Assembly (NCBI GenBank): GCA_963749705.1
Contig: CAVVNQ010000002.1
Coordinates: forward strand, 96,001-160,000
DNA: 64,000 nucleotides
Reading direction: 5' to 3'
Source: an uncultured Chloroflexia bacterium
GTDB taxonomy: Bacteria; Chloroflexota; Limnocylindria; Limnocylindrales; CSP1-4
Part shown: positions 40,340 to 63,806 of the stretch, one piece after another
Layout of the letters: each line of letters starts with the position of its first letter
Position numbering within the stretch: position 1 is the stretch's first letter
Position numbers and translations under genes: made by a program
Notes under the pieces: generated by a model
Databases searched by the model: none
What the model was told of the DNA's origin: nothing
The model's input: the letters and a program-made list of their open reading frames with translations, nothing else

Positions 40340-41326
40340 GTGACGGGGAGCGAGGCGCTCCGGCGGTTCCTGCGCTCGATGGACGCGCGTGACACGTCGC
40401 CCAACACCCATCGCTCGTACGAGACATCGATCGCCGCCTACCTCGAGTGGCTCGAGACGCGTGGGGAAGACTGGCGGGCGCCGTCGCGGGCGATCCTTCG
40501 GGCATATCTGACCGAGCTGACGGACGGCCACGCAAAGAGCACGGTCGCCCAGCGAATGGCGGCGCTCCGCGCGTTCCACCGGTACGCCGCGAGAGCCGGC
40601 ATCGCGCCCGGCGACCCGTGGGGCGCGATCTCCACGCCGCGCCTCCCGCGGCGGCTGCCGAAGGTGCTCGAGGTGGAGCAGGTGGAGCGGCTGATCGCGG
40701 TCGTCGACGCGGACCTGGACGCGGCGGCCACCACCGTCGCGCACGGTCCGCGGGATGCCGCGCTGGTCCGGGCACTCGCCCTCCGGGACCTCGCCCTGAT
40801 CGAGACGGCGTATGCGGCCGGCCTGCGGATCAGCGAGCTGGCGGCCGCCGACCTGGGCAACCTCGACCTGCGACGGGGCGAGCTGCGGGTGCTCGGCAAG
40901 GGGCGCAAGGAGCGGATCGGGCTCCTGGGCCGGCCCGCGCGCGAGGCGCTCGCCGCGTACCTCGACACGGGACGCCCGGTCCTCGCGGCGCGCCACGCCG
41001 GCCACGCCGGGCAGCCCGCCGACCGCACCGAAGGTCCGTCCACGGCGGTGTTCCTCAACCACCATGGCGACCGGCTCGGGGTGCGCGGCCTGCGATCCCG
41101 GCTGGACCGGCTGCGCCGCCTGGCCGGTCTGCCCGCCGGGATCACGCCGCACACCCTCCGTCACAGCTTCGCCACGCACCTGCTCGAGGGCGGCGCAGAC
41201 CTGCGGGTCGTCCAGGAGCTGCTGGGCCACGAGAGCCTGGCGACCACCCAGGTCTATACCCACGTGTCGCCGTCGCGGCTGCGCGACGCCTACCGCATGG
41301 CCCACCCGCGGGCAAGATCCGGCTGA
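40340..41326 (+). CDS. xerC: tyrosine recombinase XerC/XerD
   Basis: [39 protein letters not shown]; typical position after topA. Confidence 0.88.
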
Positions 41327-42963
41327 TGGACGACACGGGCGACGACCTGGTCGGGAGCGAGGAGGCGGTCGCCGTCGCGGCGCGCCGTGCCGGATCGCCG
41401 ACGACGCGGGCGCTCGCGCGGGCCGGGCTGATCGTCACCGGCCTGTTCCTCGTGTCGAGGATCCTGGGCTATGTCCGGACCGTCGCGATCGCCGCCGCGG
41501 TCCCAGTCGACCAGCTGGGGCCGTTCTTCGCCGCGTTCCGGATCCCGGACTTCCTGTTCCAGCTGGTCGCGGCGGGCGCGCTGTCGTCGGCGCTGATCCC
41601 CGTCATCACGGCGTTGTTCGCGACCGACGAGGAGGCGCGCGCCTGGCGGGTCGTGTCCACGGTCACGACGCTGATGCTCTCGGCGCTGCTCGTCCTGGCG
41701 GCGATCGTCCTCGTGCTTGCGCCGCAGCTGGTGGCGATCATCGCGCCCGGCTACGACGAGCAGTTGCGCGCCCAGACCACGGACCTCACCCGGATCATGG
41801 TGCTTTCCCCGCTGTTCCTCGCGGCCGGCTCGGTCGCGACCAGCGCGCTCAACTCGCGCGGCCGCTTTGCCGCCTCGGGCATGGCGCCGCTGGTGTACAA
41901 CCTCGCGATCATCCTGGGTGCCGTGCTCCTCGTGCCCGTGTTCGGCATCCCGGGCCTGGCGTACGGCGTGGTCGCCGGCGCCGTCGGCCACCTCCTCGTT
42001 CAGCTGCCGGCGCTGGTCCGGGAGGGTGCGCGGATCCGGCCCCGGATCGACCTCGGCGATTCCCAGGCCCGGCTCGCCCTGATGCTCATGGCACCCCGCG
42101 CGGTCGGCCTCGGAGCGACCCAGATCGTGTTCCTGGTCATGACCAGCCTCGCCACCACGCTCGGCGACAGCGCGCTGGCGGTGTTCAACTTCGCGTTCTC
42201 GCTGCTCCAGATCCCGATCGGCGTCATCGGCGTGCCGCTGGGCGTCGTGCTGCTGCCGTCGCTCGCTCGCGAGGCCGCCACCGGCGGCACCGACGCGTTT
42301 CGGCGGCTGCTCGTTCGTGGTCTGAGCCTGCTCGGCTACGTCATGATCGGGCTCGCGGTGCTGGGCATCGTCGTGTCCGAGGACGTCGTCCGGCTGCTGT
42401 TCGGGTTCGCGCACATCGGCGAGAACGCGACCGTGTCGACCGCCATGACCCTCGCGGTGTTCCTGGTCGGGCTGACGGCGCACTCGCTGATCGCCGTGCT
42501 CGCGCGGGCCTTCTATGCGCTCCAGGACACGCGGACGCCGGTCCTCGCCGCGCTCGTCGCGGTGGCGGTCAACATCGTGGTGGCGAACGTGCTCGTGGGG
42601 CCGCTCGGCCTCCAGGGGCTGGCGCTGGCGATCGCCGTCGCGGCGTGGCTCGAGACGCTGACGCTGTTCCTGCTGCTCGGCCGGCGCGTCCCGGGGCTGG
42701 GACTGGCCCGGGTGGGCGATGTGATGGCCCGGTCGCTCGTGGCCGCGCTCGCGGGTGCGGCGGTCGCGTTCGGCATCGAGCAGGGGTTGCGGGGGGCATG
42801 GGGCACGGATCCCGGCTTCGTGCTCGTGCTCGTCCGCGTGACCGTTGCGGTCGCGGCCGGCGGCACCGTGCTGCTCGGCGCGTCGATCGCGTTGCGGATC
42901 CAGGAGCCGCGCACTATCGTCGGCGTCGTGGTCGACCTCATCCGCCGCCGCGGCCGCGCGTGA
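41326..42963 (+). CDS. murJ: lipid II flippase MurJ/MviN
   Basis: SRILGYVR, AAFRIPD, GALSSALIP, FYALQDTRTP, multiple TM helices. Confidence 0.93.
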   Translation: MDDTGDDLVGSEEAVAVAARRAGSPTTRALARAGLIVTGLFLVSRILGYVRTVAIAAAVPVDQLGPFFAAFRIPDFLFQLVAAGALSSALIPVITALFATDEEARAWRVVSTVTTLMLSALLVLAAIVLVLAPQLVAIIAPGYDEQLRAQTTDLTRIMVLSPLFLAAGSVATSALNSRGRFAASGMAPLVYNLAIILGAVLLVPVFGIPGLAYGVVAGAVGHLLVQLPALVREGARIRPRIDLGDSQARLALMLMAPRAVGLGATQIVFLVMTSLATTLGDSALAVFNFAFSLLQIPIGVIGVPLGVVLLPSLAREAATGGTDAFRRLLVRGLSLLGYVMIGLAVLGIVVSEDVVRLLFGFAHIGENATVSTAMTLAVFLVGLTAHSLIAVLARAFYALQDTRTPVLAALVAVAVNIVVANVLVGPLGLQGLALAIAVAAWLETLTLFLLLGRRVPGLGLARVGDVMARSLVAALAGAAVAFGIEQGLRGAWGTDPGFVLVLVRVTVAVAAGGTVLLGASIALRIQEPRTIVGVVVDLIRRRGRA

Positions 42964-47683: not shown

Positions 47684-47757
47684 GCGACGGCCTGCGCACC
47701 GGCATCCGCGGGTCCCACCGGACCGATCCCGACCCGCCCCGCGGTAGACTCCGAAGC

Positions 47758-61315: not shown

Positions 61316-61398
61316 TCAGGCTGGTCTCACCACGGACCGGCGCCGCGACGGCCGTGCCGGGGGAGCCCCGCGGGACCCCGACGTACAATCCCGGGACC

Positions 61399-62610
61399 AT
61401 GGCGATCTACCTCGACCACGCCGCCACGACGCCGCTGCGACCCGAGGTGCTCGCGGCGATGACGCCGTACCTCGACGGCGTGTTCGGCAACCCGTCCTCG
61501 GCGCACGTGTTCGGCCGCGCCGCGCGCGAGGCGCTCGACGACGCACACGCGCGGCTCGCGCGGGCGATCGGCGGTGACCTCCGCGAGGTCGTGTTCACCA
61601 GCGGCGGCAGCGAGGCCAACAACCTGGCGCTCAAGGGCGCCGCCTGGGCCGGGCGCGCCAGGGGCCACCGGATCGTCACCACGCCGATCGAGCACCACGC
61701 CGTCGGTCACTCGCTGTCACACCTCGAGAAGTTCGGGTTCGAGGTCCACGAGGTGCCGGTGGACCGGTACGGCCGCGTGGACCCGGCGGACATCGAGCGC
61801 GCGATCACCGATCGCACGATCCTGGTCTCGGTCATGCTCGGCAACAACGAGGTGGGCACGATCCAGCCGATCGCGGACATCGCCGCGATCGTGCGGGCGC
61901 ACCGCGGGATCCTGTTCCACGTGGACGCCGTCCAGGCGGCGCCGTGGCTGGACCTCGACGTGTCGACGCTGGGCGCCGATCTGGTGGCGCTCGCTGCGCA
62001 CAAGGTCGAGGGGCCCAAGGGGACGGGGGCGCTGTGGATCCGCAAGGGCACCCACATCCTCGCCCAGCAGCACGGCGGCACGCAGGAGCGCCACCGGCGC
62101 GCCGGCACCGAGAACGTGGCCGGCGCGGTGGGCATGGCCACGGCCTTCGAGCTGCGCGCGGCCGAGCGGGCGCCGCTGGCGGCCCGCGTGCGCGAGCAGC
62201 GGGAGCGGCTCCAGGCCGCGATGCTCGCGGTCGACGGCGTCGAGCTCACGGGTCACCCGGTCGACCGCCTGCCCCACATCCTGTCCGTCATCGCGCACGG
62301 CACCGACGGCGGCTCGGTGGCCCAGGCATTGGACCTCGCCGGGATCGCCGTGTCCACCGGATCCGCGTGCACGACCGGCTCGACCGAGGTCAGCCACGTC
62401 CTGTCCGCGATGGCGTACCCGGACGAGGAGGCTCGTGGGTCGCTGCGGGTGTCGCTCGGCCGGACGACCACCGACGCCGACATCGACGAGGCGATCCGGA
62501 TCGTGCCCGGCGAGCTGCGGCGGATGATGACGGTCGGCACGGCCACCCGGCAGCCGGAGGGGTCCGTGCCCGTCCCGGTCGGACCGGGACCGGTGGTGAC
62601 CGCCACGTGA
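61399..62610 (+). CDS. iscS: cysteine desulfurase (IscS/NifS type)
   Basis: [44 protein letters not shown]. Confidence 0.93.
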
Positions 62611-63806
62611 GCCGGATCCTGGTCGCGATGTCAGGCGGCGTCAATTCATCGGTCGCCGCGGCGATCCTCCACCAGCAGGGGCACGAGGTGGTCGGCGTGT
62701 GGATGCGGCTCCACGAGGTCGCCGACAGCTACTCCGAGTTCCGCAAGAGCTGCTGCTCCGCCGACGCCGCCGACGATGCCCGCCGGGTGGCCGCGCGGCT
62801 CGGGATCCCGTTCTACGTGATGAACCTCGAGCGCGAGTTCGCGGCGGGCGTGATCGAGCCGTTCATCGCGGCCTATCTCGGCGGCCGGACGCCCAGCCCG
62901 TGCGTCGACTGCAACAGCTACGTCAAGTTCGGGGCGTTGCTGGGCAAGGCGCGGCACCTGTACCAGTGCGAGGCCGTGGCGACCGGGCACTACGCGCGGC
63001 GGGTGGTGGTCGACACGCCCGACGGACCGCGGGCGACGCTCGCCCGGGCGGCCGACGCGGACAAGGACCAGACGTACTTCCTGTACGGGCTCAGGCAGGA
63101 CCAGCTGTGGCACAGCCGGTTCCCGCTGGGCGACCTGACCAAGCCCGAGGTTCGGGACATCGCGAGGTCGCTGGACCTGGTCACCGCGGACAAGCCCGAG
63201 AGCCAGGAGATCTGCTTCGTCCCGGGTGGCGACTACCGCGACGAGCTGCGGACGCGCGGCGGCTGGACGCCCGAGCCCGGGCCCGTGTACGACGCCGACG
63301 GGAGACGAGTGGGGGAGCACGACGGGTCCGCCGGCTACACCGTGGGCCAGCGGAAGGGCATCGGCGTCGCGCTGGGTGAGCCGCGCTACGTGTCGCGGAT
63401 CGACCCCGCCACCAATGCCATCGTGCTCGGCCGCCGGGAAGACCTCGAGACGCGCGAGATCCCGCTGGAGGGGGGCACCTTCGTCGCCGGCGAGCCGCCA
63501 GCTGGACGGGGACCCGACGGCGCCCGGCGGTCGTTCCGTGCCCTTGTCCGGATCCGTCACCGGGCGCCGCTGATCGAGGCGGAGGTCCACCCGGCGTCCG
63601 CCGACGAGCCCGCACGGGGCGGCCGCTGGATCGTGCGGACGGAGCGTCCGGTGTGGGCGATCGCGCCGGGCCAGGCATGCGTGCTCTATGACGGGCACAC
63701 GTGCCTCGGTGGTGGGCGCATCGCGTCAGCGGCGGCAGCCGGCGCGCCGGACGCCCGACCCGGCACCGAGGCCGGCGCGCCATCGCTCGTGTCCGGGCCG
63801 GCATGA
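62607..63806 (+). CDS. mnmA: tRNA 2-thiouridylase MnmA; PP-loop Asp encoded as Asn
   Basis: AMSGGVNSS (canonical SGGVDSS), [42 protein letters not shown]. Confidence 0.96.

Follow-up and report, generated by a model that had tools for sequence, protein, structure and literature searches.

The window, by which the whole stretch of 64,000 nucleotides analysed here is meant, belongs to the genome of an uncultured soil bacterium of the Chloroflexota (G000 below) and carries towards its end mnmA, the gene for the tRNA 2-thiouridine(34) synthase, together with a gene for a cysteine desulfurase immediately upstream. The features needed for what follows, numbered from the first letter of the window, are these:

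61354..62610, + strand: IscS/NifS-like cysteine desulfurase (PF00266, 1.1e-76)
62607..63806, + strand: mnmA, tRNA 2-thiouridine(34) synthase of the C-type (CC-CxxC-C), 399 aa, GTG start
62631..62648, + strand: PP-loop motif, SGGVNS here and SGGVDS in the family (from the sequence and the comparison with homologues)
62643, + strand: single private base, A here where all relatives have G (codon GAT or GAC), in the context GTC-[G>A]AT

The mnmA reading frame extends from the GTG at 62607 to the stop codon at 63804-63806, and its product matches PF03054 (4.1e-71), PF20259 (2.3e-16) and PF20258 (4.2e-12). The HUP (PP-loop ATPase) domain, the PRC-barrel and the C-terminal beta-barrel of MnmA/TrmU proteins are all present, and the curated equivalog cut-offs of NCBIfam were exceeded for both MnmA models, with 384.1 bits against a cut-off of 284 for NF001138 and 313.6 against 236.95 for TIGR00420. 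Alignment with the MnmA of E. coli (2DER) covered residues 3-373 (E 5.7e-63) and placed N13 opposite the aspartate of SGGVDS. The cysteines, which the initial annotation had described as intact, are indeed C49, C50, C99 and C102 (CVDC) and C203 (EICF), i.e., the CC-CxxC-C pattern of Fe-S cluster binding by which the C-type, Fe-S-dependent MnmA was defined by Shigi et al. 2020 (PMC7025502). Only one MnmA match was found in the genome, which comprises 3.6 Mb in 22 contigs and is 88% complete. Judged by sequence, the gene is thus an ordinary single-copy C-type mnmA (with a [4Fe-4S]-type motif) and an mnmA orthologue, the protein of which, as assembled, is without one catalytic residue.

Two characterized enzymes provide the closest points of comparison. 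The C-type MnmA of Thermus thermophilus has the same three-domain architecture and the same CC (49, 50), CxxC (99, 102) and C (203) cysteines, and the numbering of the residue at which the PP-loop begins is identical; a cysteine desulfurase gene directly upstream also counts among the common features, and the difference lies in residue 13. The D-type MnmA of E. coli (2DER, 2DET, 2DEU) shares with the window protein the PP-loop, the GHY and DQ(T/S)YFL blocks and the C-terminal barrel, whereas a DxxC motif (Asp99) stands where the window protein has CxxC, the CC pair is absent and the loop reads SGGVDS.

The desulfurase gene ends in a TGA that overlaps the GTG start of mnmA by 4 nt (GTGA), and mnmA is expected to be translationally coupled to it. 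A class-V PLP desulfurase gene thus adjoins mnmA on the same strand, as in sulfur-relay pairs of the iscS-mnmA type, and the residues of the desulfurase are in place (HK at 216, GSAC at 336), so that the pair is as complete as had been initially annotated; the best NCBIfam rows for the desulfurase were NifS and IscS, both below their cut-offs. As to the U34 substrates, tRNA-Lys(UUU) and tRNA-Gln(UUG) are both encoded in the genome, and no tRNA-Glu(UUC) turned up in the assembly, which is 88% complete.

The asparagine codon in the PP-loop

The nucleotides 62631-62651 read TCA GGC GGC GTC AAT TCA TCG in frame, so that SGGVNS stands at residues 9-14 in place of the SGGxDS that characterizes MnmA; the codon of N13 is the AAT at 62643-62645. 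The replacement had been pointed out from the sequence before, along with the part that the aspartate plays in the ATP-binding PP-loop, and both statements were borne out. Asp13 was described as strictly conserved in both types of MnmA, C and D, by Shigi et al. 2020 (PMC7025502), in whose work a D13A variant of the Thermus thermophilus enzyme kept its Fe-S cluster, iron content and spectrum but lost all 2-thiolation activity; the residue that is inactivating there when replaced by alanine is the very one that is Asn in the window assembly. A limited literature search on the PP-loop and MnmA returned no test of D13N, the available text of PMC7025502 describing D13A and not D13N.

The asparagine is private to the window assembly. 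All 120 homologues listed (78-92% identity) have SGGVDS with aspartate at this position; 119 of them entered the alignment, and the remaining one (P0058, a 657-residue desulfurase-MnmA fusion call) was examined separately. Aspartate was likewise found in 23 of 23 loci of the same genus that hold the N-terminus (24 genomes were available, one of which, at L024, is without it) and in 5 of 5 loci fetched from the neighbouring sister family. Only three residues of the window protein, N13, I20 and H364, are absent from all 119 aligned homologues, and I20 is common to the sister genome G020. Public sequencing runs were searched as well, and none was found to contain the source, the best covering a share of 0.22 of the words. 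In four runs compared at 90% likeness, the sole contig spanning 62643, from run X3 and belonging to a relative about 91% identical, has G there; a contig from X1 begins one base past the site.

The codons around the change are rare for this genome, which has a G+C content of 71.5%: among 520,831 codons of GC3-filtered open reading frames, AAT accounts for 6.8% of the Asn codons, TCA for 2.8% of the Ser codons and GAT for 19.4% of the Asp codons. The rarity of AAT is as expected of a recent, unadapted change. The initial annotation had drawn attention to a run of AT-rich codons in a GC-rich gene, which holds as far as the rarity of the codons is concerned; the run itself is mostly inherited, since the sister genome shares GAT-TCA (GTC GAT TCA TCG in G020; G009 has GTC GAT TCG TCG). 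Because G020 has GAT at this position, AAT can be reached by one G>A transition. Within 62631-62651, the G>A at 62643 and a synonymous TCC>TCA at 62633 are the only private changes. A further private change lies 30 nt downstream of the Asn codon, at 62673, where GAG>CAG gives E23Q at a base that is invariant in 10 of 10 relatives; the three changes (62633, 62643, 62673) fall within 41 nt, which is above the regional density of 57 in about 44 kb.

The suggestion that SGGxNS might be sought in other PP-loop enzymes of the same genome led to none: GuaA (SGGVDS), ArgG (SGGLDT) and NadE (SGGIDS) are canonical, and TilS/TtcA, QueC and AsnB had no Pfam match in the 88%-complete genome.

SGGVNS MnmA genes in other genomes

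When 185,579 species genomes were scanned at the DNA level with a pattern of ten residues, 21 loci were returned, namely 17 MnmA homologues and 4 chance matches. Eleven of the 17 came from a single MAG series (isolate names MFDnnnnn.bin; loci L034, L037-L041, L043, L045, L049, L051 and L052), and their record titles range over Alphaproteobacteria, Planctomycetia, Dormibacteraeota, Binataceae, delta proteobacteria and Chloroflexia. The series was obtained from Nanopore-only metagenomes by Flye assembly with one round of Medaka polishing, with a median of 20 contigs per MAG, and is described as adding 15,314 species to a taxonomy of 113,104 (PMC12313526). If the series makes up about 8% of the scanned collection (an estimate, not a count), the binomial p for its share of 11 in 17 is 9e-9.

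In each of the 11 MAGs the Asn gene is the sole mnmA locus (weak PF03054 matches of 30-37 bits lie elsewhere in two of them), with the same codon and the same G>A as in the window. The context GTC-AAY, which is also that of the window, was found in 10 of the 11 and in none of the six SGGVNS genes from outside the series (Fisher p 0.0006). By title, the 11 genes belong to lineages other than that of the window gene, and their products are 40-82% identical to the window MnmA; four of them are also split by frameshifts, whereas the window gene is intact. Relatives were compared for two of the 11 MAGs, and the asparagine was private in both, aspartate being present in 10 of 10 relatives of G049 and in 11 of 11 relatives of G046, one of the latter at 91% identity.

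The six SGGVNS genes outside the series belong to four Listeria sensu lato genomes, one Clostridia MAG and one Bacteriovoracaceae MAG, and in all six genomes a canonical SGGVDS MnmA accompanies the Asn copy. These paralogues (L042, L046, L048, L054, L053, L047) are full-length MnmA-like reading frames with Asn at the same PP-loop position as in the window. They are, however, second copies, and in Listeria the asparagine is conserved among relatives, whereas the window gene is a sole copy in which it is private; neither of the two traits that mark the Listeria-type paralogue, a conserved Asn and a canonical second copy, was found for the window gene. The same pattern was also sought in 241 million metagenome records, which gave 10 loci, six of them MnmA-like (five distinct), and none more than 51% identical to the window MnmA over at least 200 residues. 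A sole-copy Asn MnmA was thus seen in one long-read-only series and in the window, and nowhere else in these scans.

The Listeria genes deserve a remark of their own. Listeria newyorkensis, L. grandensis and L. rocourtiae (two genomes) carry the second MnmA-like gene (L042, L046, L048 and L054; also L060-L062 and L064), in which all four retain SGGVNS and P(C/D)xxCN is lacking; the canonical D-type copies (L055-L058) have SGGVDS and PDVMCN. One of the two L. rocourtiae genomes has the paralogue in two pieces. The gene may code for a pseudo-enzyme that has been conserved, or for a paralogue put to a new use. The SGGVNS proteins of the Bacteriovoracaceae MAG (L047, with L086) and the Clostridia MAG (L053/L059, with L063) keep PCIxCN, the canonical SGGVDS copy lying elsewhere in each genome.

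Assembly type and changes on the branch

The 22 contigs of the window's assembly, the largest of 647 kb, include a full-length 16S gene inside a 395-kb contig, beside tRNA-Ile(GAU), and the assembly looks like one of the long-read type (Nanopore and HiFi not being distinguishable). The branch leading to G000 was followed over 40 kb, for which the syntenic DNA of 10 relatives in the genus was anchored on the window, the sister G020 being 92.4% identical. At bases invariant in the genus (13,813 for G000, each invariant in at least 7 others), there were 57 private changes in G000 and 80 in the sister; the count of 57 leaves out 62643 itself, due to a misplaced blastn gap in G014. Private replacements numbered 20 in 4,384 genus-invariant protein columns for G000 and 11 for the sister in a first count (Fisher p 0.004), and 10 and 7, respectively, after doubtful overlapping frames were dropped and the changes were polarised with G009. 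Private replacements at genus-invariant residues are therefore ordinary, and one is to be expected in a protein of 399 residues; N13 is unusual solely by its position, at a residue that is invariant across the whole family.

Polarised by G009, the same 40 kb gave totals of 1,064 changes on the G000 branch and 1,078 on that of the sister, with non-synonymous to synonymous ratios of 113/461 and 117/427 (p 0.46, underpowered), and 5 versus 7 changes of the type C>T or G>A at TCGA sites (likewise underpowered). The rate implied for an error at this codon, a few per thousand GTCGAY sites, would yield fewer than one event over 40 kb, such that these branch tests neither support nor refute an error.

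Reading frames of the relatives were also aligned to the window, which gave four split matches near 41.3, 47.7, 55.8 and 61.4 kb, each with one of five relatives. At about 41296-41327 and 47701-47739, single G009 frames align to two frames of the window, which was seen with none of the four remaining relatives; these splits may be frameshifts in the window or in G009. The mnmA of the sister (G020:C7:323460-324652; L025, L067) has two single-base insertions, 9 nt apart, corresponding to window positions 63273 and 63282, which divide it into two frames (residues 1-224 and 222-399). The split may reflect an error of assembly or genuine decay of the gene.

Origin of the asparagine

The recurrence of a sole-copy change in 11 unrelated Nanopore-only MAGs points to a consensus error, and N13 is probably the product of a long-read consensus error that recurs at GTC-GAY. 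With the change private to one assembly, repeated in one MAG series and found in an assembly of the long-read type, an error at 62643 is the most likely explanation. The G>A would then be absent from the DNA of the organism and would represent an error recurring at this codon in long-read-only metagenome assemblies, while the real enzyme would have a normal SGGVDS loop and would adenylate and thiolate U34 as other MnmA do. The clean state of the rest of mnmA and the intact operon and cysteines were counted in favor of an error, as were the importance of the residue, the retained tRNA substrates, the lack of a second mnmA and the canonical copy that accompanies every Asn gene outside the series. 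Several points speak against it: an assembly from HiFi reads would not share the error; over 40 kb, changes of the proposed kind are not in excess on the G000 branch (an underpowered comparison); a mechanism such as methylation or basecaller bias would be required; and the neighbouring private changes, E23Q (62673) and TCC>TCA (62633), are not G>A.

Alternatively, the A could be a real and recent private allele of mnmA, a loss-of-function or strongly hypomorphic one that is fixed or frequent in the sampled population, which is possible although distinctly less probable than an error. It is, after all, the base present in the assembly, and this branch is rich in private replacements at residues that do not vary in the genus (20 in 4,384 columns, or 10 when polarised). 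A rare AAT codon fits a single recent step, the signature of an error went undetected in 40 kb (again underpowered), and the frameshifted mnmA of the sister could mean that selection on the gene has been relaxed in this small clade; that frameshift, however, fits an assembly error just as well. The absence of any sole-copy Asn MnmA outside one long-read series among 185,579 species genomes, and of an Asn MnmA of the window's lineage from 241 million metagenome records, argues against such an allele, as do the lack of further decay in mnmA, the retention of tRNA substrates and the in vitro inactivity described for D13A (PMC7025502). That the asparagine is real but the enzyme still works, either because an Asn-type PP-loop binds Mg-ATP well enough or because the role of the protein has shifted, seems quite improbable. 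The SGGVNS conserved in the paralogues of the four Listeria sensu lato genomes, and encountered also in the Clostridia and Bacteriovoracaceae MAGs, indicates that Asn is tolerated there in some folded MnmA-like proteins. Each of those genomes, however, keeps a canonical SGGVDS MnmA, the Listeria paralogues are devoid of the (C/D)xxC motif, D13A abolishes activity (PMC7025502), and an asparagine private to one genome does not demonstrate selective retention. It is very unlikely that a soil Chloroflexota lineage truly has Asn in its only MnmA and either lives without s2U34 or lets Asn replace the Mg-ATP aspartate.

An earlier proposal placed the AAU in the loop of a small hairpin. A-to-I editing in such a loop would turn the codon into IAU, to be read as Asp, and would thus recode it in the RNA. 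This hairpin is absent from the minimum-energy fold of 62622-62668, in which two different small stems flank the AAU in an unpaired linker; the stability of the fold is unexceptional (z -0.50), 49 of 200 shuffled sequences folding at least as well. The known bacterial mRNA-editing enzyme, TadA, uses a UACG loop, and the context here is CAAUU; moreover, the relatives simply encode GAY, and the locus was found in none of the public RNA runs. Recoding of this kind is scarcely credible, and the hairpin was rejected, its fold being no better than that of shuffles. The implication that the active site is a meaningful or recoded variant was likewise not upheld, given an Asn that is private to one assembly, the canonical loops of GuaA, ArgG and NadE and the same sole-copy change in 11 unrelated Nanopore-only MAGs. 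N13 is thus most likely an assembly error or, failing that, a recent private mutation, and not a new kind of enzyme.

For the biology of the organism, little is at stake, the gene being a standard mnmA in which the odd residue is probably absent. For the use of such assemblies, the occurrence of the same Asp-to-Asn change in 11 unrelated long-read-only MAGs means that single-residue “active-site variants” in them need confirmation at the level of the reads, and it looks as though a context-specific error could also affect other conserved GTC-GAY codons. Should the allele be real, it would offer a natural test of the dispensability of the PP-loop aspartate and of s2U34; as a loss-of-function allele, it would leave little or no s2U34 on tRNA-Lys, tRNA-Gln and tRNA-Glu, and if the Asn enzyme were functional, it would be linked to the conserved SGGVNS paralogues of Listeria sensu lato.

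A side observation concerns the tRNA-Ile lysidine synthetase family (TilS/TtcA, PF01171), which was matched in 14 of 14 control genomes and in 0 of 25 genomes of the genus, including one 3.6-Mb genome in a single contig. The genome under study encodes a tRNA-Ile with the anticodon UAU (G000:C21:40431-40507, outside the window) and only two CAU tRNAs. The genus therefore probably reads AUA without lysidine, as a few bacteria reportedly do.
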